Assembly: GCA_037444405.1 (NCBI GenBank) | Contig: JBBIML010000007.1 | Coordinates: 1 to 64,000 of the forward strand | DNA: 64,000 nucleotides | Reading direction: 5' to 3' | Origin: Armatimonadota bacterium | GTDB lineage: Bacteria > Armatimonadota > Fimbriimonadia > Fimbriimonadales > GBS-DC | Part shown: one piece after another, positions 10,753-62,798 of the stretch | Position numbering within the stretch: the first letter of the stretch is position 1 | Layout of the letters: each line of letters starts with the position of its first letter | Program-made: the position numbers and the translations under genes | Notes under the pieces: model-generated | What the model was told of the DNA's origin: nothing | The model's input: only the letters and a program-made list of their open reading frames with translations | Database searches by the model: none

Positions 10753-11862
10753 ATGTCAAAGGCGCCCATGATTATCAGCGCCAGCCGGCGCACCGATATA
10801 CCGGCGTTCTACGCGAAGTGGTTCATCAACCGCATTCGCGAAGGCTACTGCCTCGTGCCGAATCCCTTCAATCCCCAGCAACAGAGCCGAATCTCGCTCC
10901 AGCCAGACGATGTGCTGGTGATTGTGTTCTGGACGCGCTATCCCCGCCCGCTGATGCCCTATCTTGAGGAGCTGGACGAGCGCGGCTACCGATACTACTT
11001 CCAGTTCACCCTGATGGACAACCCGCCCGAACTGGATCCGTACATGCCGCCCCTTGAAAAACGCCTGCAAACCTTCTGCGAACTCGCGGAACGCATCGGC
11101 GCGGAGCGGGTCGTCTGGCGATATGACCCGATTGTGATCAGTCCCATCACGCCGCCAGAGTTCCATCTGGACAAACACGCATGGCTGGCGGAGCGGTTGC
11201 GGGGCTGCACGAAACGCAATGTGATCAGCATCGTGGACACCGACTATCGCAAGCTTCAGCCGCGCCTGCGCCTGCTACGCAAAGAGGGTGTTCACTTCAA
11301 CGAGTGGGAAGAGCGGTTCGGGCAGTTCATCCGCCAGATTGCCGAAACCGCCCGATGCAACGGGATGGCAATCCAGAGCTGCGCCGAGGTGATCGATCTG
11401 GAGCCGTACGGTGTGCCGAAAGGTAAGTGCGTGGATGACGACCTCATTCGTGAGGTGTTCGGCATTCAGGTCAGCAGTAGGAAGGACCCGGGTCAGCGTG
11501 AGGCGTGCGGCTGCGTGGTGAGTCGGGACATCGGGATGTACGACACCTGCCTCTTCGGCTGTGTTTACTGCTATGCTACCTCCAGCTTTGACAAAGCCCG
11601 CGAGCGCCACCGCCAGCACGACCCAAACTCACCGATGTTGATCAGTCTAACATCTCTGCCAGACAGCCTCGTAGAGCGGGGTGAGAGGCTGTGGCTGGAT
11701 GGGGGCTGGCGGCTCGGCGGTCAGAGGGCTGAGGTCGGCTTGCCAGCCACCCAGCTGGCGGCGCACGCGCTCGTGATAGAGCGCGAGCGACGCCTGATGC
11801 AACGGGTCGCCCGTCATGCGCGCCCGCACCGCCGCCGAATCGAGCAGATACAGCGCGATTAG
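10753..11862 (+). CDS. DUF1848 family protein (radical-SAM-like Cys motif)
   Basis: IISASRRTDIPAFY, WRYDPI, QREACGC, DIGMYDTCLFGCVYCYA. The last ~70 aa overlap the antisense acyl-CoA dehydrogenase. Confidence 0.8.
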   Translation: MSKAPMIISASRRTDIPAFYAKWFINRIREGYCLVPNPFNPQQQSRISLQPDDVLVIVFWTRYPRPLMPYLEELDERGYRYYFQFTLMDNPPELDPYMPPLEKRLQTFCELAERIGAERVVWRYDPIVISPITPPEFHLDKHAWLAERLRGCTKRNVISIVDTDYRKLQPRLRLLRKEGVHFNEWEERFGQFIRQIAETARCNGMAIQSCAEVIDLEPYGVPKGKCVDDDLIREVFGIQVSSRKDPGQREACGCVVSRDIGMYDTCLFGCVYCYATSSFDKARERHRQHDPNSPMLISLTSLPDSLVERGERLWLDGGWRLGGQRAEVGLPATQLAAHALVIERERRLMQRVARHARPHRRRIEQIQRD

Positions 11863-13269
11863 CGCGTCGGCAAGCGGCTCCACAAAAGCCTGCGGCGGTT
11901 CCTCAACCGATTCCAGCGCAATCAGCGCCCGCCCTGTAAGCCTGCGCAGAGCGGTCAGCGTCGCATCCACATCGCTGCCGCCGTCCGATGCCTGCTCCAC
12001 AGGCGACCACGCCCCGCGCCGACGCAGATAGAGCAACCGCTCCACCAGGTTCAGGCGATTGATTTCGTTCGTGCCCTCGTAGACGCGGTTCACCCGCGCG
12101 TCGCGGTAGAGGCGGGCTATCGGATACTCCTCCGAGAAGCCATAACCGCCGTGAATCTGCAGGGCGTCGTCGATAATCTGATGCAGAATCTCGGTGATGG
12201 CGACCTTGATAAGCGCGCACTCGGCAGCGAACTGCGCGGCGGCGTAGCGCCAGCGGCTTTGAGGGTCTTCGGCAGGCGTGCTGAACGCCATCTCCAGATC
12301 GCCCGCCAGCCGATAAAGCGCGCTTTCGGCGACATAGAGCATCGCCCGCCCGAGTGCCAGCTTGCGCCACACCAGATCGAACTCGATAATGGGGCGTCCA
12401 AACTGCTTGCGAACCTGCGCGTATTCGTAGCCGATGCGCCATGCCTCCTTGCCCAGCCCGACGCCCGCCGCACCGATTTTGAACCGCCCGATGTTCAGCG
12501 TGTAGAGCGCGACATAGGCGCCCTGACCCTCCTCGCCGAGCCGATTCCCGACGGGCACGGGCACCTCGTCCAGCACGATTCGGCAGGTGCTGGAGCCGTG
12601 CAAGCCGAGCTTGTGTTCCTCGCGCTCCACAATAAAGTTAGGCGCGGTGCGCTCCACCAGGAAGGCGGTGAACCGTTTGCCGTCCACCTGCGCGAAGGTC
12701 ACGAACAGGTCGGCGAAGCCCGCGTTGGTGATCCAGATTTTGTTGCCGCGCAGGTAGTAGGTGTCGCCCTCGCGGCGGGCGCGCGTGCGGGCGCTGAGCG
12801 CGTCGGAACCCGATTCGGGTTCGGTGAGCGCGTAGGCGCCAATCAGCTCGCCCGTTACGAGGCGTGGGAGGTAGCGTTCCGCCTGCTCGCGCGTGCCGAA
12901 CAGCAACAGGGGCAGGCTGCCCACGCTGGTATGCACCGCGTGGGAGACAGCAAACGAGGGCTGGATGGCGGTCTTCTCGGTGATGAGGGCGGAGGTCGGC
13001 TTGGATAGCCCCAGTCCGCCATATTCGGGAGGCACATCGATGCCGAGCAAGCCGAGCTGTGCCGCTTGCTCCAGCAGCGTGCGCATCAGCCGTCTCTCGC
13101 CCGATTCGAGGCGCGGCACCAGCGGCATCACCTGCTCGCGAATGAACCGCTCGATCGCCTCCGCCATCAGGCGGTCTTCTGCCGTGAGCTGCTCGGGCGT
13201 GAAAATCGTGGCGGGTGTAGCCTCTAAAAACGCGCCGCTACGCGCACCCTGCGCCGTCGCCTGACTCAT
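11647..13269 (-). CDS. Acyl-CoA dehydrogenase
   Basis: ALTEPESGSD, KIWITNA, KLGLHGSST, QIHGGYG, YEGTNEI. Confidence 0.9.
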   Translation of the reverse strand: MSQATAQGARSGAFLEATPATIFTPEQLTAEDRLMAEAIERFIREQVMPLVPRLESGERRLMRTLLEQAAQLGLLGIDVPPEYGGLGLSKPTSALITEKTAIQPSFAVSHAVHTSVGSLPLLLFGTREQAERYLPRLVTGELIGAYALTEPESGSDALSARTRARREGDTYYLRGNKIWITNAGFADLFVTFAQVDGKRFTAFLVERTAPNFIVEREEHKLGLHGSSTCRIVLDEVPVPVGNRLGEEGQGAYVALYTLNIGRFKIGAAGVGLGKEAWRIGYEYAQVRKQFGRPIIEFDLVWRKLALGRAMLYVAESALYRLAGDLEMAFSTPAEDPQSRWRYAAAQFAAECALIKVAITEILHQIIDDALQIHGGYGFSEEYPIARLYRDARVNRVYEGTNEINRLNLVERLLYLRRRGAWSPVEQASDGGSDVDATLTALRRLTGRALIALESVEEPPQAFVEPLADALIALYLLDSAAVRARMTGDPLHQASLALYHERVRRQLGGWQADLSPLTAEPPAPIQPQPLTPLYEAVWQRC

Positions 13270-13286
13270 CGTGTCTATTATATCCC

Positions 13287-13323
13287 AAAACAGAAATGGG
13301 GGCGTCCTTTTCAGGACGCCCTC
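13287..13323 (-). terminator. Rho-independent terminator
   Basis: Minus strand GAGGGCGTCCTGAAAAGGACGCCCCC followed by ATTTCTGTTTT. Confidence 0.7.
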
Positions 13324-13353
13324 AGTGAAGAACGGAGAATAAGGGTGTAAGCC

Positions 13354-13599
13354 TTAGCTCATCCGACGCAGGGCTTCAACCACGGCGTGATACTCCTCGG
13401 GACGCCACCGACGACGCGCGTTGATCAGTTCCTGTTCCAGTCGCTTCAATCGTTCGAGATACCGCTCCTGACGATGCCGATAGTACCGTTGAGTGGCGGT
13501 CTTGCTCGCCTTGCAGTGGGATCGATGTCCCAGGTAATGTCCGTGTGCAAAAGCAACCTTGTCGCGTGCGCGACGCTTCCTCTTACGCTCAGTTCGGAT
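13354..13599 (-). CDS. Unannotated 81-aa basic protein with putative ATC start codon
   Basis: (I/M)RTERKRKRRARDKVAFAHGHYLGHRSHCKASKTATQRYYRHRQERYLERLKRLEQELINARRRWRPEEYHAVVEALRRMS*. SD GGAGGT lies 8 nt upstream; there is no in-frame ATG/GTG/TTG in the intergenic region. Confidence 0.6.
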   Translation of the reverse strand: MRTERKRKRRARDKVAFAHGHYLGHRSHCKASKTATQRYYRHRQERYLERLKRLEQELINARRRWRPEEYHAVVEALRRMS

Positions 13600-13655
13600 G
13601 ACCGAACACCTCCTCTGACAGGATGGAACGGGCTTCCAGTGGAAGCACTGGCTTA

Positions 13656-13684
13656 TTAAACTGCTGACGGGCGCAAAAAGTTCC
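13656..13684 (-). promoter_or_regulatory. ECF (sigmaE-like) promoter
   Basis: GGAACTT-N16-GTTTAA on the minus strand, close to the RpoE-type consensus GGAACTT-N16-GTCTAA. Confidence 0.55.
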
Positions 13685-13685
13685 C

Positions 13686-15224
13686 TCAGCGGTAGCGGGC
13701 GACCAGCAGGTAGAAGGTTCGTCCCAGCGCGTTGCGTTGTTCCAGCGGGATGAGGCGCGGGTGTTCTGCCAGCGCGCGCTCGGTGGTCAGGCAGTACGCG
13801 CCCTGCTGCTCCATCTGTTGAAGGAGCGCGTTCAAATCGTCGGTGCTGTCGGTGCGCCCCTTGCGATAGAACTGCAAGCTGGGATAGCCAGGGCGTACCC
13901 TGTAGAGGATAAGCGTGCGGTAGGGTGGCACGGCGCGCGCCAGCTCGCGCACGGGCGCCAGCAGCAGACGGTCATAGCCCCGCAACGCGCCGTTCAGCCC
14001 CAGCGTCAGCGTTAGCACGCCGAGCAACAGGGTCGCCGTCCAGCGTCGCTCGCTGATCAGCCAGCCCATCAGCAGGCACCAGCCGACGCCCAGCAGACCC
14101 GCCAGCCAGACCCCGCTGAGCTGCGCCAGCCACAGCCCCAGCACCGTCCAGATAGCTAGCCCCAGCGCGGCGATGCCCATCCCATACAGCGACAGAGCCG
14201 CATGCCGCTCAATATGCAACCGATAGCCCACCATCAGCGCGAGCGCAGGGAACATCGGGAAGATGTAGGCGGGCAGTTTGGTGAAGCTGAGCGTGAACAG
14301 CCCGAACACAAGCCACGCCCAGCCGCGCAGGTAGCGCATCACCGCTGGCTCGTCGGGCGCACGCTGCCAGAGAACACTCGCATAGAACGCCATCGGCAGC
14401 CCGCCCAGCCACACGATTACCACATAGAAAAGCAGATAGAGCGCAACGCCCGCCGCGACTGACCCCGCCGCACCGCTCTGAATCAGCGGCAGCACCGAGT
14501 GCGCCGTGTCGCCTCCCGCAAAGCGCAGCAGGTTCTGACGCAAAACAAACTCCTCAAAGAAGTCGCGCCCGTGCTGGCGATAGACGCCCATATACCACGG
14601 TGATGCCGTTGCGAACGCCATCAGCAGGGCGACCAGCACCCAGCGCAGGCGCAAGCCGCTGGCGTGCAGGGCACGCGCCTGCAGGAGATAGTTCAATCCC
14701 ATCAGCCCCAGCCCGACGGGTCCTTTTGTCAGAACCGCCAGCCCCAGCGCGATACCGCCCAGCACGCTCCAGAGCAACGGACGCTCCCGCGCTTCCCAGA
14801 GCGCGATCAACGCCAGCGTCAGCCAGCAGCAGAGCGCCATGTCGGTGATAGCGAGGCGCGTCAGAAGCAGGCTCAATGGCGCAAGGGCGAACAGCAGACC
14901 CGCCAGCACGCCCACGCCCGAACCCAGCCGCCGCTCACCCCACGCAACAATCAAAATCAGCGTTAAACCAGACAGCAGCACCGAGGGCAACCGCACAGCG
15001 AACTCGTTCTCCCCGAACAGACGCATGCCGATGATCATCAGCCAGTAGAGCAGAGGGGGCTTCTCAAACCACGGCGCCTCGCGAAACAGCGGCGTCAGCC
15101 AGTCGCCCCGCGCCTTCATCTCCCACGCCACCGAGGCATAGAACCCCTCATCCAGATCGGTCAGCCCGAACGCCACGATGTCGATCAGGGCGAGCAGAAC
15201 CAGCAGACCCAGCAGCGCACGCAC
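13686..15224 (-). CDS. ArnT/PMT family (GT39/GT83) membrane glycosyltransferase
   Basis: DEGFYA, WFEKPPLLYW, AVRLPS, LTKGP, KLPAYIFP motifs; many TM segments. Confidence 0.85.
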   Translation of the reverse strand: MRALLGLLVLLALIDIVAFGLTDLDEGFYASVAWEMKARGDWLTPLFREAPWFEKPPLLYWLMIIGMRLFGENEFAVRLPSVLLSGLTLILIVAWGERRLGSGVGVLAGLLFALAPLSLLLTRLAITDMALCCWLTLALIALWEARERPLLWSVLGGIALGLAVLTKGPVGLGLMGLNYLLQARALHASGLRLRWVLVALLMAFATASPWYMGVYRQHGRDFFEEFVLRQNLLRFAGGDTAHSVLPLIQSGAAGSVAAGVALYLLFYVVIVWLGGLPMAFYASVLWQRAPDEPAVMRYLRGWAWLVFGLFTLSFTKLPAYIFPMFPALALMVGYRLHIERHAALSLYGMGIAALGLAIWTVLGLWLAQLSGVWLAGLLGVGWCLLMGWLISERRWTATLLLGVLTLTLGLNGALRGYDRLLLAPVRELARAVPPYRTLILYRVRPGYPSLQFYRKGRTDSTDDLNALLQQMEQQGAYCLTTERALAEHPRLIPLEQRNALGRTFYLLVARYR

Positions 15225-20886: not shown

Positions 20887-21867
20887 TTACATCCCTCCCG
20901 CTGGCTTCTCTTTCGCCAGCGATTTGATATACGCGATGAGCTGAACAATCTGTTCTTCGCTTAAAACGCCCTGATAGGGCGGCATGACGGGCTGATAGCC
21001 TGCCACAACCTTCGCGGCAGGGTTCAGAATCGATTCGCGGATATAGGCTTCGTCGGCGGTGACGGTGCGCCCATCCGCTAATTTTACCTTACTGCCGAAC
21101 AGCCCGCGCAGGTCGGGCGCCTTGACAGCGGAGTTAGGGTTCATATGGCAGGTGTTGCATGCGCCAACGCCCTCAAACACCTGCTTGCCCTGCTCCTCCA
21201 GCGAGAGCGCGGTGGTTGTGGGGGCTGCAGCAGGCACACCACCCTGCGACAGCCACCGCTCAAACTCTTCTGGCTTCATCACATAGACCCAGCCAATCAT
21301 CTCCGAATGCTTCGTGCCACAATATTCGGTGCAGAACAGGTGATACTTGCCCGGCTGGGTCGGCGTGAAGAACATCGAGTTGTAGCGACCGGGCACCACA
21401 TCGCGCTTGACGCGAAAGGCGGGGATAGAGAAGGCGTGGATCACATCCTGCGAGATGGCAGTGACCTTCACCAGGCGTCCTGCAGGCAGGTGCAGCTCGT
21501 TATTCTCGCGAACCCCATTCGGATGCTGGGCATGCCACATCCACTGCTTGCCAATCACGAAAACTTCGTAGGCGCCTTCCCGCGGGGCATAGATGGCGCC
21601 GTAAAGCTTGGCGGACCAGGCAAAGATGGTCAGTGCCAGAAAGAGAGGAATAAGCGTCCAGCCCAGCTCCAGGCGCAGGTCAGTCTCCACAGCGTCGTCA
21701 CGGCGCACATCATCATTGCTGGCGCGATACTTCACCGCCAGATAGATAGCACCGAACAACACAATCGCACCGAAAACAATCGCCAGAGCGCTGATCGTCC
21801 AGAAGAGGAGGGAGATGGCTTCGCCCTCCTTTGCAGCGGTCGGCGGGATAAAAGGCGTGCTCCACAT
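20887..21867 (-). CDS. coxB: Cytochrome c oxidase subunit II with fused cytochrome c (caa3 type)
   Basis: CuA motif [16 protein letters not shown], and C-terminal CNTCH heme site. Confidence 0.92.
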
Positions 21868-57604: not shown

Positions 57605-58355
57605 CAATCTGTTACTTTCAGCGTCTTTTGGACGCCTACTGACCTTGCCTCTGGCAAGGCGGGTAAGCCTTTCGGCTTACCTCTGCATGTCGCCATGCAG
57701 TTCGGACTGTCTCTTCACCCTGTGGGCTTCAGGGTGTCCGGCGTACAGTCTCTGAGGGTTCCAGATGAGAGTAGATGGTTTTGATATCGATCTTCCGATA
57801 AGCTCCGTTGTCGTTCATGCTCACAGCGATCTGCAGGATTGCTTTGAAGCCTGCAGGCGTGAGATGCTCTCTGTTATGGAGCTTTCGGACAATCGTGGCG
57901 AACTTCTCAAAATCGTGGCGTTTGGTGGTGCGGAGCGGATAGCGCTCAAAGAAGGGGATGACCTTCTCCAAGAGGTCTTTGCGTGATCGCACCACAAACA
58001 CCCAGGTTTTGTCGTTCGGTTTGCGACGGTCGTTCGGCTTCAGGTAGCCGCAACCCAGCGTGTCTCGGATGAGTTCCAGCACGCTCTTGTTTCGTTCGTG
58101 CTGGGAGACATGGAGTTCTGGAATGACCTGCCAGCCCAGTTTCGTACTGGGATTACGCTGGATGGCTACATGAAAGCTGCCTTCGCCGTCCACAAACCCA
58201 GCGATATAGTAGCCCAGACTCTCATCTGGCCTTCCCTGCTGATTGCCTGCACCTGACGCATTGTTACTCATGTGCTGAAGTATAGCACATGAGTAGCGCA
58301 GGATACTAACCAGGCTTCCCAGCATATAGCCGGATTTATAGACAGCACGGTGAGT
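57605..58355 (-). mobile_element. Group I intron after U2604 (E. coli numbering)
   Basis: Exon GAGACAGU|UCGGUCCC; P1 GACAGU/GCUGUC with U.G pair; terminal G; AAUCAGCAGG and AGAGACUG/ACAGUCC core elements. Confidence 0.88.
57729..58271 (-). CDS. LAGLIDADG homing endonuclease (single motif)
   Basis: [23 protein letters not shown]. Start at MSNNASG. Confidence 0.88.
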
Positions 58356-58402
<47 letters not shown>

Positions 58403-58412
58403 TGAACCCCCC

Positions 58413-58471
<59 letters not shown>

Positions 58472-58685
58472 CCGCCGTCGCTGTGGACGCTCGGGCAGGA
58501 TCAGCCTGTTATCCCTAGGGTAGCTTTTATCCGATGAACCCTGGCGTGCCCACGCACTGCCAGAGGGTCACTAGGCCCGGCTTTCGCCTCTGCTCGACCC
58601 GTAGGTCTCACAGTCAAGCCCGCTTATGCCCTTGCACTCGACGCGCGATTTCCGACCGCGCTGAGCGGACCTTTGGACACCTCCG

Positions 58686-59321
58686 TTACCGTTTAGGCAA
58701 TTGCGTTCGTGCAGTCGCTGGCAATTTGTAACGCATTTCGGGTATCAGGTACGGTTCAACCAGTTCCAGGAACCCTGGGAGGTTCCGTCCTGGAATGACA
58801 ATCTGATACCCTTCGGCTTGCCGTCGCAGGTACGCTTCCAGTCCAAACCGTTCGGAAAGCAGCTGTGCCAGTCGCTCGACCTCCTCGCGCTGGAACCCCT
58901 GGGTGTTGAACAGCACGGCTTTCGCTTTGGGGTCTTTGAGGGAGCCGTCGTCCATGAACCAGTATGCCAGGCTACGGGGTTTCAGCCAGCGATGAAGCAG
59001 AGGTGGCACGCGCTTGCGCCCCTCGCGATAGAACTGGTGGGCGTAGAATCGGAAGGCGCCGTGGCTGACGGTCTGGAACCACCAGTTGCCGTTCGATTTC
59101 TGCTGGGGTGGTGTGAGAACCCATTCCTGGAAGAGCTGATAGAGGTGCTGCACATAGGCAGCGTGCGTGGCGCCCTGTTCGATTTTGAGGCGATAGGTGC
59201 GTCCGCGATTGTGCGTTTCCAGGTGGGCATCGCCCAGCAGGATTCCCACCAGCACCTCACGCTGGATGGGCGTGAGCTTGAGTTGCTGTTTATCGGTTTC
59301 GATGGCGCGTGTGTGTGCCAT
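58686..59321 (-). CDS. LAGLIDADG_2 family homing endonuclease (double motif)
   Basis: VGILLGDA and LAYWFMDDG; strong SD AAGGAGGT; stop codon lies in the 3' exon. Confidence 0.88.
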   Translation of the reverse strand: MAHTRAIETDKQQLKLTPIQREVLVGILLGDAHLETHNRGRTYRLKIEQGATHAAYVQHLYQLFQEWVLTPPQQKSNGNWWFQTVSHGAFRFYAHQFYREGRKRVPPLLHRWLKPRSLAYWFMDDGSLKDPKAKAVLFNTQGFQREEVERLAQLLSERFGLEAYLRRQAEGYQIVIPGRNLPGFLELVEPYLIPEMRYKLPATARTQLPKR

Positions 59322-59625
59322 AGCGACCTCCTTCGTCTGCGACGGACTGCACGCCTCCTGTGGGGAGGCTTCCGGTCGCCCGGAAGTTCAGACTGTCTCA
59401 CCATCCACGCAAGGTGGATGCTCGGCGTACAGTCGTTGAGGGGTCACGAGGACTTCCCTGCTGATTGTCCGCACCAGTCGCATTTTCAGTGGCGCAGGCG
59501 CCACTAGCGCTGGATGCTGCACCCCTTCCTCAAAGCACGGAGGTGCGGCTTTGAGTGAGGGGACGGACTTCCCAGCATATAGCCGAGTTTGCCTCCGATG
59601 TTGCCATCGGAGCGCCCCACTGTTG
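58698..59625 (-). mobile_element. Group I intron after U2262 (E. coli numbering)
   Basis: Exon GGGGCGGUCGCCU|CCUAAAC; P1 CGCCU/GGGCG; terminal G; core elements present. Confidence 0.88.
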
Positions 59626-59928
59626 AGGCGACCGCCCCAGTCAAACTACCCACCTAAGACTGTCTCCGAACCGGCTCACGGTTCGGGTTAGCACTTCAGC
59701 AGACCAAGGGTGGTGTTCCATTGACGCCGAAGCTCCCACCTACGCTCTACATGATCTGCCAAAATGCAATCTCAGGCTGTAGTAAAGCTCCATAGGGTCT
59801 TTCCGTCCCACCGCAGGTAACCCGCATCTTCACGGGTAGTACAGTTTCACCGAGAGTCCCGCTGAGACAGTGGCCCAGTCGTTACGCTTTTCGTGCGGGT
59901 CGGAATTTACCCGACAAGGAATTTCGCT

Positions 59929-60685
59929 TATCGCCTTACTCGAGTTTACTCGAGCGAGCCATTACCCCCCTTGTCACAGGGAACGGCTCCTGCATGTCGC
60001 CATGCAGATGGGACCATATCATCACCTCGTCATTGAGGTGTCCGGCGTATGGTCTCTGAGGATTCTAATCACTGCGGAGCGGTCTTTGCGCCGATTCATG
60101 GAAGCGGCTATCTGGGCTATTGTTTCGAGACCTTCTGGTGTCAGATGGTCTCCGCGTGCGACATGCTCCAGACAGCGCGCGAACTTCTCAAAGTCGTCTC
60201 GTTTTGCGGTTTGGAGGGGGTATGTTTGGAAGAACGGGACGATGACTTCGAGAAGGTCCTTGCGACGGCGCACCACATAGCGATACAGGTGTTCCTTGTG
60301 GTTGTCATGGCGTCGGTTTCGGATAATATTTCCGACGCCAAAGAAGTGGCGTAGGCGCTCCAAGGCGTGCAGGCTACGCTCGCCTTGGGTGACAGAGAAC
60401 TCATGAAACACCTGTATGCCGACTTTGTAGCCTTTGCGGAGTCCTCTATGCGGCTGCTGAATGAAGCCGATAGAGAAACAACCTTCGCCGTCTACAAAGC
60501 CGACGACCCATCCGACAGTGATTAGTCTTTCCTGCTGGTTGTCCGCACCAGACGGATTGTTACTCATAGGAAACGGTTTCGTTGAAGACAGGGAGTTTCC
60601 TACGAGTACCGCTGGATACCCCGGAGTTTCCAGCATATAGCCGGATGCGCACCACATGGTTACCCATGTGGGGGGCAGCGAAGCT
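59929..60685 (-). mobile_element. Group I intron after U1931 (E. coli numbering), apparently ending in A
   Basis: Exon GGUCCUAUGGU|AGCGAAAUUCC; P1 GGUAGC-uuc-GCUGCC; P7 GACCAUA/UAUGGUC; last intron nucleotides ...GGCGAUA. Confidence 0.85.
60022..60567 (-). CDS. LAGLIDADG homing endonuclease (single motif)
   Basis: WVVGFVDGEGCF, VPFFQTYPLQT. Start at MSNNPSG. Confidence 0.88.
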   Translation of the reverse strand: MSNNPSGADNQQERLITVGWVVGFVDGEGCFSIGFIQQPHRGLRKGYKVGIQVFHEFSVTQGERSLHALERLRHFFGVGNIIRNRRHDNHKEHLYRYVVRRRKDLLEVIVPFFQTYPLQTAKRDDFEKFARCLEHVARGDHLTPEGLETIAQIAASMNRRKDRSAVIRILRDHTPDTSMTR

Positions 60686-61510
60686 ACCATAGGACCGTTA
60701 GAGTTACGGCCGGCATTCACCCGGGCTTCAGTTTGGGGCTTTGCCTTGCGGCTGACCCCTCCCCTTAACCTACGGGCATTGGCCAAGCGTCGCCCCCTAT
60801 ACATCGGGTTTTCCCCTTAGCAGAGAGCTGTGTTTTTGGTAAACAGTCGCCAGGCCCTCTTTGCTGCGACCTCCCTCCGCTTGGGCGTTGCAGCCTACAC
60901 GGTGGGAGGCACCCCTTCTCCCGAGGTTACGGGGTCAATTTGCCGAGTTCCTTAGCGGGACTTCTCTCGCGCGCCTGAGGCTCCTCGCCTCGCCTACCTG
61001 TGTCGGTTTGCGGTACGGTCAGGTGGGTTCATCGCGGAACGGCTTTTCTCGGCTGCAGTCGGGGTCGCTTCGGTTGCCCGAGGGCTTCCTTCGTCGCCGG
61101 TGCGTTGCCTCACCGGCGAGCGCGGCCTTCCAGCTCCGCGCCCGACCCGTTCTACAGCGTCCCCGTTCGCGCTCCGCCACCTGGGGTGGGAATGTTGACC
61201 CACTGCCCTTCACCTACGGCGTTTCGCCCTCGGCTTAGGACCGCCTAACCTTCAGCGGACGAACCTGCCTGAAGAACCCTTAGGCTTTCGGCGGACGGGA
61301 TTCTCACCCGTCTTCTCGCTACTCGTGCCGGCATTCTCACTTCTGCACGCTCCAGTGGTGCTTCCGCTCCACCTTCACGGCGTGCAGAACGCTCCCCTAC
61401 CGCTCACCAGCGCAGGGCTGGTGAACCCGCCGCTTCGGCGACCAGCTTAAGCCCCCTTACATTGTCGGCGCAGGGTCACATTCGGCCAGTCAGCTGTTAC
61501 GCACTGTTTA

Positions 61511-61547
<37 letters not shown>

Positions 61548-62475
61548 ACGCGACCCTACATCCTTTCACACTGAGCTGGTGCTTAGGGGCCTTAGCGGGC
61601 GGTCTGGGCTGTTTCCCTTTTGACAACGGCGCTCATCCGTCGCTGTCTCACTCCCACGCTTCCTGCTATGCCATTCGGAGTTTGGTTGGGTTCGGTAACC
61701 TGGTAGGGCCCCTAGCCCATCCAGTGGCTCTACCTGCATAGCATAGCGCGTGGGGCTGCACCTCAATGCATTTCGGGGAGAACCAGCTATCTCCGCGCTC
61801 GATTGGCATTTCACCACACTACCCCCAGTTCCTCCGAGCCCTTTTCAACGGACACCGGTTCGGCCCTCCACCGTGTGTTACCACGGCTTCAGCCTGACCA
61901 GGGGTAGATCGCGCGGTTTCGGGTCTACGCCTTGTGACTGAGTCGCCCTGTGAGGACTCGCTTTCGCTACGGCTCCGTGCCGGAGGCACTTAACCTTGCC
62001 GCTGAGCGTAACTCGCCGGCTCATTCTGCAAAAGGCACGCCGTCAGGCTGTTCCCCTTGCGGGGCATAGCCCTCCGACTGCTTGTAGGCGCACGGTTTCA
62101 GGTTCTCTTTCACTCCCCTCGCCGGGGTGCTTTTCACCTTTCCCTCACGGTACTGGTTGCGCTATCGGTGGCAAGGAGTATTTAGCCTTACCCGGTGGTC
62201 CGGGCCGATTCGCGCAGGGTTCCTCGTGTCCCGCGCTACTCGGGAGCCTGACGGGAGACGATTCCTTTTCGCATACGGGGCTCTCACCCTCTATGGCGTG
62301 CCGTTCCAGGCAGCTTCTGCTAAGGAACCGTTTTGTCACTCCCTGAGCGGTCTGCCGCCCGCTCGGTCAGGTCCCACGACCCTGGCATCGCAACGCCGGC
62401 AGGCTTGGCACGATGCCAGTTTAGGCTGTTCCCCGTTCGCTCGCCACTACTGAGGGAATCCCATTCGGTTTCTTT

Positions 62476-62510
<35 letters not shown>

Positions 62511-62798
62511 ACCCTCCGCACCGCCTATGGGTTCAGCGGAGGGTGACCACCCTTGCGGTGGCCGGGTTTCCCCATTCGGGCATCCACGGATCAACGCCTG
62601 TTTGCGGCTCCCCGTGGCTTATCGCAGCTGACCACGCCCTTCATCGGCTCCTTGCCCCGAGGCATCCACCGTGCGCCCTTAGTAGCTTGCCCACTCAGAC
62701 GCACTTCTCGGTGAACACTTCGCCCGATTGTCAAGGTGCACATTTGGTTGAGAGGGGTCCGTTGCCCCTGGGTAAACCCTCGCAGGTAGGCTACAGGT

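Follow-up and report, generated by a model that had tools for sequence, protein, structure and literature searches.

A hidden small-protein gene with a conserved ATC start codon and an ECF-type stress promoter in a family of Fimbriimonadales

Does the interval between a glycosyltransferase gene and an acyl-CoA dehydrogenase gene in this Armatimonadota genome hold a protein gene that begins with ATC, and, if so, what might its product do? An initial annotation of the window, i.e., the whole stretch of 64,000 nucleotides analyzed here, described a minus-strand unit with an ECF promoter, a Shine-Dalgarno (SD) sequence, an ATC-initiated ORF of 81 codons, and a terminator, and each of these elements was recovered at the place given for it. 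Our results support the presence of a conserved but overlooked protein gene that starts with ATC and stands behind an ECF-type stress promoter, with a terminator of its own in this genus.

The locus and selection on its reading frame

The promoter (13656..13684, minus strand) is of the ECF (SigE-like) type. Its −35 element GGAACTT (13684-13678) and −10 element GTTTAA (13661-13656) are separated by 16 nt, and it starts 1 base past the stop codon of the upstream PMT_2/ArnT-like glycosyltransferase gene (13686..15224, minus strand). Since no terminator lies between that gene and the 81-codon ORF, read-through is possible. An extended SD sequence, AGGAGGTG (13607..13614, minus strand), includes AGGAGGT (13614-13608) 8 nt before the ATC at 13599. 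The coding sequence that follows (13354..13599, minus strand; TAA stop at 13356-13354) specifies a protein of 81 amino acids (~10.2 kDa) with a pI of 11.4 and 25 Lys and Arg residues, consistent with the very basic product first described. The ATC-started frame is missing from the ATG/GTG/TTG-start ORF list of the window, confirming that the ORF track had overlooked it.

Beyond the stop codon, an intrinsic-terminator-like hairpin (13287..13321, minus strand) consists of a 9-bp stem with a GAAA loop (13321-13300) and a U tail out to 13287. It folds at a z score of −2.9, in agreement with the strong terminator claimed, although the U tail is imperfect. A strong hairpin of differing sequence follows the stop codon in all seven sequences of the same-genus type, some without a good U tail; neither of the two genus g5 sequences has one, and a DNA methyltransferase gene follows there. 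In genus g5 (L011:4001-5824 and L012:3575-5254), a different C-terminal tail of the ORF overlaps a GGTATAAT box before the methyltransferase gene, and a piece 91% identical to the genus g5 methyltransferase is present elsewhere in this genome (C12:59495-59979). The upstream neighbor is also another gene in genus g5. The downstream neighbor, here an acyl-CoA dehydrogenase gene (11647..13269, minus strand), is unlike in most relatives, which suggests a variable site; in the closest relative (L008:4244-6670), ~2.4 kb are inserted between the terminator and the dehydrogenase gene. Elsewhere in the window, a Group I intron match lies inside the 23S rRNA gene (59369-59635, minus strand), and the 4.4-kb length of that gene (58294-62692) implies sizeable insertions within it.

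Homologues were found in 7 of 41 genomes in a first search, in 7 of 29 genomes of the family in a profile search (an eighth profile row among them, with an E value of 0.079, was dropped), and at 16 metagenome loci. They collapse to 11 distinct intact proteins and one pseudogene, which are close kin and not independent samples. The ORF proved to be conserved in these relatives with dN/dS below 1, as expected of a protein gene: dN/dS was 0.03 to 0.23 in 25 of 45 pairs (codons 2-58, 10 sequences), dS being saturated in the other 20. Over the same codons and sequences, mean pN was 0.14 and mean pS 0.69, and 23, 21, and 54 of 57 columns were variable at codon positions 1, 2, and 3, respectively. 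Other reading frames gave pN/pS values of 1.5 to 2.0; the exception was the mirror frame (0.35), but it contains 3 to 6 stops. An antisense ORF of 90 amino acids (13387-13659, plus strand) was rejected, with pN/pS values of 1.5 and 1.8 in the two antisense frames open in this genome. Judged from these alignments, the ORF is under purifying selection, and it is almost certainly a real gene.

It is very improbable that the transcript works as an RNA, or that the start was misread, with initiation taking place instead at the SD-internal GTG or at an NTG further downstream. Both the third-position bias and the low dN/dS argue for selection on a protein. No RNA family matched the locus at the Rfam gathering score, the only hit being a chance match on the terminator (E = 0.28), and a conserved low-z window inside the coding sequence was not seen in nine sequences. 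The absence of a conserved internal stem, together with the position of the hairpin after the stop codon, separates the gene from non-stop control in the style of ArfA and BrfA. Two further hairpins had been proposed to control translation, one in the leader (13636..13651, minus strand) and one that encloses the ATC (13607-13592, minus strand). Both are present as drawn, but they are not conserved and are altered already in the closest relative. The z score of the leader is −0.99, with −0.69 to +0.88 in five homologues, which is not beyond chance, and the ATC is left unpaired with a probability of anywhere between 0.15 and 0.97 in nine sequences. Control by these hairpins is therefore not supported, since they lack both conservation and a stability greater than chance would give.

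The ATC start codon and its counterparts in infC and hflX

We consider it very probable that ATC is the start codon. It stands in register in all 11 distinct intact homologues, and also in the pseudogene, and ATG is found in none. A single base change would turn ATC into ATG, and 0 of the 11 intact homologues show it. A sequencing error, which ATG in the homologues would have indicated, is ruled out by this recurrence. The sequence GGAGGTG precedes the ATC by 7 nt in nine homologues and by 6 nt in two; this spacing is modal for the genome, in which ATG starts behind GGAGGTG peak at offsets 5 to 7 (25, 33, and 36 sites). Genome-wide, ATC shows no excess at offsets 7 to 8 after GGAGGTG. The 22 nt before the ATC pair with the 3' end of the 16S rRNA, taken from the same window, at −18.3 kcal/mol, and no in-frame ATG, GTG, or TTG occurs upstream in four genomes of the same genus. 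The gene thus shares the hallmarks of infC- and sigR-type genes, namely a conserved start other than ATG, GTG, or TTG, normal SD spacing, and no better canonical start.

A misread start would explain why public gene calls begin these proteins at assorted GTG or ATG codons, as extensions or truncations, and it gains something from the facts that the GTG of the SD shares the reading frame in 2 of 11 homologues and that, among Ile codons, ATC is the most frequent (59%). In the other nine, however, this GTG is out of frame, and it has no SD of its own. As the bases between the SD and the ATC vary freely and their number shifts by one, the SD-internal GTG cannot be a shared start, and downstream NTG codons are not common to the homologues. 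A frameshift from this GTG was also dropped, as the homologues share no slippery site. A canonical start may be used in a distant cluster of the family (P0011-P0013; 75 to 76 amino acids, NCBI assemblies), whose members end in an Arg run and are annotated with an N-terminal Met 3 positions further upstream and no Ile at the start. One of its members, P0011 (E = 8.6e-17; 60% identity over 53 residues), was among only three proteins found in a search of 1.84 billion representative proteins.

Elsewhere in the genome, ATC starts are rare. Besides infC, five of the ATC/ATT/ATA start candidates (67 listed, plus one in lnt) were followed. The lnt candidate and a gene for a 122-amino-acid protein were dropped because they are not conserved, and a window gene at 21816 because of an ATG upstream; an “ATT” of HAD-IIA is conserved (6 of 6), yet in a different frame it reads as the C terminus of the gene before it. 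The GC3 of the 81-codon ORF is 0.60, against 0.81 to 0.83 in neighbor genes, and the codon-use filter missed this ORF itself, so other atypical ATC genes may have been missed.

Only two genes of known function make up the remainder of the ATC-start group. The first, infC (G000:C30:23539, plus strand), starts with ATC in three and with ATT in two of five genomes, 8 nt behind GAGGGTG (loci L049-L053). The second, hflX (G000:C11:82276, minus strand; loci L081 and L090-L119; TIGR03156 above cutoff), shows an ATC preceded by a strong SD in 24 of the 25 genomes of the family, and the one other family genome and all five outgroup loci carry ATG or TTG at roughly the same position. For 20 of the 24 ATC genomes, no ATG, GTG, or TTG occurs between the upstream in-frame stop and the ATC, and in two the stop is the codon directly before the ATC. 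An ATG immediately follows the SD in one genome; in several, an NTG lies four codons downstream, at too great a distance from the SD. No ECF motif was found upstream of infC or hflX. A literature search returned no ATC start of hflX; supplementary start-site tables of preprints, which could bear on the point, lay outside its coverage.

IF3 represses translation from noncanonical starts, including the ATC of Streptomyces infC and the GTC of sigR, according to the accessible portion of PMC5472188. Output from AUC is given as 1 to 2% of that from AUG in E. coli (10.1101/063800, in part), and output from AUU and AUA starts with extended SDs as ~10% in Staphylococcus aureus (10.1101/2025.06.19.660503, in part). 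IF3 keeps ribosomal subunits apart, and HflX splits stalled ribosomes in heat stress (PMC9067457, as far as its text was available). By analogy with infC and sigR, IF3 gating of the ATC start appears fairly probable, and the shared start geometry at infC and hflX raises the likelihood both of such control and of a product that binds nucleic acid or the ribosome.

Promoter, regulon, and distribution

The promoter is likely an ECF stress promoter, as first claimed. The motif GGAACTT-N16-GT[ACT]T lies upstream in all 11 distinct intact homologues, though the upstream gene differs between genera. In its strict form, GGAACTT-N16-GTnTA, it occurs three times in the 2.68-Mb genome (0.12 expected), always at spacer 16; among other spacers from 10 to 24 there was one match at 24 and none at the remaining 13, and five of five shuffled genomes gave none. 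These three sites precede a SigE-like sigma gene, an hsp20-like gene, and the 81-codon ORF. The combination of promoter, SD, and ATH is found once in the genome; across 228 genomes, it matched three known loci and two noncoding sites by chance, with a gap range that leaves out G000 to G002, this genome (G000) included. In five relatives, the promoter pattern gave 27 matches against four for the reversed control, and the genes behind it are those for sigma (two), clpB (three), dnaK (two), hsp20 (two), rpoD (one), tmRNA (two, Rfam-confirmed at one locus), this small protein (four), a conserved small RNA (three), and others; the labels dnaK, clpB, hsp20, rpoD, Skp, and ArsR were recognized from translations, not by family search. 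Eighteen sites, none of them upstream of this gene, served to train a matrix that ranked the promoter of the 81-codon ORF third in the genome; the training sites had been chosen by the same core pattern.

The genes for the SigE-like sigma (G000:C7:217913-218476), a ZAS-like anti-sigma factor, and HtrA form one run (G000:C7:217767-220609; L045), and the sigma gene is preceded by two GGAAC-type promoters in tandem. For this sigma the best NCBIfam match is SigE, below its cutoff. As the genome has nine sigma-like matches, the assignment is based on the autoregulatory motif, from which the SigE-like sigma would appear to read the promoter. A conserved motif common to the sigma gene and to chaperone genes is also what characterizes regulons of the SigE/SigH type; the corynebacterial SigE/SigH promoters at dnaK and clpB read GGAAC-N16/17-CGTT in the available text of PMC10012870. 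The small RNA candidate behind the same ECF promoter (~75 nt; G000:C17:26581, minus strand; L054, L077, L080) has a short 5' arm, a 14-bp stem, a loop with a pyrimidine-rich, anti-SD-like CTCTCC, and a U tail. Two copies are present in G011, and Rfam gave no match for L054 or L077.

The family probably inhabits hot springs. Within it, the gene is present in all four genomes of genus g1 and in three of four of genus g5, one of these three being a pseudogene; it was not found in 17 g3, 2 g4, 1 g2, and 1 g6 genomes, several of them incomplete (one weak g3 row was dropped). As far as sequence searches go, the protein thus seems confined to two of the six genera in a single Fimbriimonadales family and to one further cluster without a placement. 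No credible match was obtained beyond the family in 401 genomes of the phylum (three draws) and 228 of the class, weak rows with E values of 1e-3 to 0.08 having been dropped for stops or short cover. A longer or fused form was not seen among 8,000 scored candidates, which is weak evidence. In the hflX tree (30 rows), g1 falls outside (g5,(g3,g4)) with support of 94/90, which would be compatible with an ancestral gene followed by losses, and no promoter or ORF remnant was found 3' of the ArnT-like gene in any of five genomes checked. The genus g5 pseudogene (G013:C195:3546-3773; L007, L015) has lost its promoter and SD and acquired two stops, has retained the ATC, and differs from the intact homologue in G011 by 18 nonsynonymous and 8 synonymous codon changes. 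The gene is accessory, not core; its distribution is patchy and it is dispensable.

Repeated loss, with a pseudogene that also lacks promoter and SD, is what one would expect of a growth-arrest or toxin-like protein for stress dormancy, which the ATC and a stress-only promoter would keep harmless; a weak start fixed in every intact copy and, in genus g5, a location in front of a DNA methyltransferase gene fit as well. We nevertheless regard such a role as improbable: the neighbors change, there is no conserved antitoxin partner or antisense element, the protein has no hydrophobic membrane helix, and the gene was not found in the viral contigs, phages, and plasmids searched.

The protein, its possible role, and comparison with known systems

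Fifteen proteins were aligned. Residues H21, H25, H28, and C29, spaced i, i+4, i+7, and i+8, are invariant in all of them and lie within GHYLGHR[ST]HC (codons 20-29; 13513..13542, minus strand). The invariant core comprises R10, D13-K14-V15, A18, G20-H21-Y22-L23-G24-H25-R26, and H28-C29, followed by R38-Y39, R41, R43, Y47, L51, L54, L58, and P67. The cluster HxHxxxHxxHC, noted in this one protein at first, is kept only in part: the first His (H19) is Phe or Tyr in most homologues, so the motif is HxxxHxxHC. The C-terminal coiled coil fared likewise. A heptad repeat does extend over the long helix of residues 40 to 65 (13405..13482, minus strand; structure model and alignment), with Y47, L51, L54, and L58 following the invariant basic and aromatic patch R38, Y39, R41, and R43, but conservation between genera does not extend to the last ~20 residues. 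AlphaFold2 (nine sequences) predicted helices at 2-28, 31-64, and 67-80 with a mean pLDDT of 72.5 and a pTM of 0.38, the middle helix alone being confident (pLDDT of 70 to 94 over residues 31-60).

No family match was found in Pfam, NCBIfam, or PHROGs, and none among PDB sequences (best E = 0.44) or in the Atlas (best 0.85 in one search, none in another). Foldseek gave 0 matches, and a VIA-align fold search with the predicted model (pTM of 0.38) gave generic coiled coils only (Z of at most 5.5). The RMF profile (PF04957) exceeded its cutoff in none of five genomes, and none of its 18 weak rows fell at this gene; the ArfA profile (PF03889) had no match at the locus, at E values up to 10, in G000, G001, and G011. 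A search of the literature, mostly without subscription papers, retrieved no account of this protein. We regard it as a new protein family, and its control as a new combination built around a known regulatory device.

In the predicted model, H21, H25, H28, and C29 would all point to the same face of a helix, making a bound metal possible. Since the gene belongs to the regulon that such a protein would control, these four invariant residues could also form the His3-Cys site of a metal- or redox-sensing partner that feeds back on the stress regulon via the ECF sigma, a chaperone, or a protease. ZAS anti-sigma factors carry the motif HxxxCxxC, which differs from the one here; moreover, a ZAS-like anti-sigma factor is already encoded next to the sigma, the sigma is retained in genomes without this gene, and a pI of 11 is better suited to nucleic acid. 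We therefore consider a sensor quite unlikely.

The basic region followed by a leucine heptad, which would dimerize, invites comparison with bZIP proteins, in which the basic region has an Asn-x7-Arg register. A low-abundance DNA-binding regulator or nucleoid protein of this kind, whose level the ATC merely holds low, as for CcpN, CvfC1, or SigR, would account for the invariant R38-Y39-x-R41-x-R43 directly before Y47/L51/L54/L58 and for the long predicted helix 31-64, confident over residues 31-60. CvfC1 of S. aureus, a 61-amino-acid putative zinc finger protein with an AUU start, offers a parallel (10.1101/2025.06.19.660503, in part). Against this, no bZIP or HTH family matched any of 10 members in Pfam or NCBIfam, the Asn-x7-Arg register is off by one, and the fold matches are the generic coiled coils mentioned above. 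On balance, a DNA binder is possible but rather unlikely.

Our best reading, offered tentatively, is a stress-switched, IF3-gated gene whose basic helical product binds the ribosome. RNA polymerase with the SigE-like ECF sigma would transcribe the gene from GGAACTT-N16-GTTTAA upon heat, misfolding, or envelope stress, together with a regulon for protein quality control (hsp20, dnaK, clpB, the sigma operon with its anti-sigma factor and HtrA, and tmRNA). The extended SD would then load the 30S subunit on an ATC that IF3 normally rejects; output might be ~1 to 10% of that of an ATG start and would rise when IF3 proofreading slackens. The product may bind rRNA via its Arg/Lys-rich N terminus and the RYxRxR patch, possibly with a metal held by H21/H25/H28/C29, and may act as an accessory ribosome factor in times of stress, protecting or parking subunits. 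It would belong to the same feedback circuit as the lineage's ATC-start IF3 and HflX, both of which act on subunit association.

The ribosome is a plausible partner, if not quite a probable one, on account of the charge, the tmRNA that shares the promoter, infC and hflX that share the start codon, and the precedent of unrelated small basic factors. The RMF and ArfA profiles and the family, structure, and Atlas searches gave no direct sign of ribosome binding, and proven noncanonical starts are also found on the nonribosomal regulators sigR (PMC5472188, in part) and ccpN and cvfC1 (10.1101/2025.06.19.660503, in part). Bolder, and in our view unlikely, is the proposal that the gene is a third member of an ATC-start circuit with infC and hflX that senses IF3 and the state of free subunits, its product representing a new class of metal-binding factor that serves to protect ribosomes, put them into hibernation, or split them. 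Such a factor would be produced only if heat stress, signaled by the ECF sigma, and a disturbance of translation, in the form of IF3 slack, occurred together.

Noncanonical starts have been demonstrated in few bacterial genes. The ATC here is fixed across saturated synonymous divergence, and public gene calls overlook the gene or misplace its start; coupled to an ECF stress promoter, this start codon would constitute a natural two-input gate. The ATC start of hflX across the family opens the proposition that IF3 gates ribosome-recycling genes to direct testing. The significance is bounded by the narrow, patchy distribution and by a protein function that is so far inferred. If the product does bind ribosomes, the small factors like ArfA, BrfA, and RMF, which are known to escape homology searches, gain a further class unrelated to them.

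The known systems nearest to this one include infC, in which an ATT, ATC, or ATA start serves IF3 autoregulation, and E. coli pcnB, both of which likewise have a conserved non-NTG start and a strong SD; infC of this very lineage has the same layout as the small-protein gene. The differences are that the product here is not IF3, that a stress sigma promoter is added, and that IF3 dependence is proposed by inference. Streptomyces sigR (GTC, IF3-repressed; PMC5472188, in part) likewise joins an ECF stress regulon to an IF3-sensitive start codon, but there the weak start is on the sigma itself and here on a downstream target gene. S. aureus cvfC1 (AUU) also encodes a small protein, and cvfC1 and ccpN (AUA) have the same combination of an extended SD and a conserved weak start, with ~10% output according to the available text of 10.1101/2025.06.19.660503; those genes lead operons, whereas this one is a stand-alone ECF target, and no sequence relation is apparent. 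The SigE/SigH regulons of Corynebacterium and Mycobacterium (PMC10012870, in part) share the −35 element, a similar −10 element and spacing, and chaperone targets, although the −10 element here is GT[ACT]TA and the sigma operon has htrA and an autoregulatory site.

For bZIP-like binders, which combine a basic region in fixed register with a leucine zipper and form homodimers, the comparison gave a heptad in the protein and no family match. The ZAS anti-sigma factors are set apart by the motif (here HxxxHxxHC) and by a ZAS-like gene that lies elsewhere, beside the sigma. ArfA, BrfA, ArfT, RMF, and bS22 are, like this protein, short, basic, lineage restricted, and easily missed by annotation. 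Such small basic ribosome factors are mutually unrelated in sequence (PMC8012679 and PMC10618245, both in part), and a stem-loop or terminator within the coding region of ArfA and BrfA gives rise to a non-stop mRNA (PMC8012679, in part). In contrast to these five, the gene described here has no internal terminator or RNase III stem and no profile match, and its patchily distributed product carries a His/Cys motif and a heptad that they lack. A bS22-type protein is present and nearly invariant throughout its lineage, unlike a gene found in 7 of 29 family genomes, once as a pseudogene, and Lys and Arg make up 31% of the protein here compared with 61% in Borrelia bS22.
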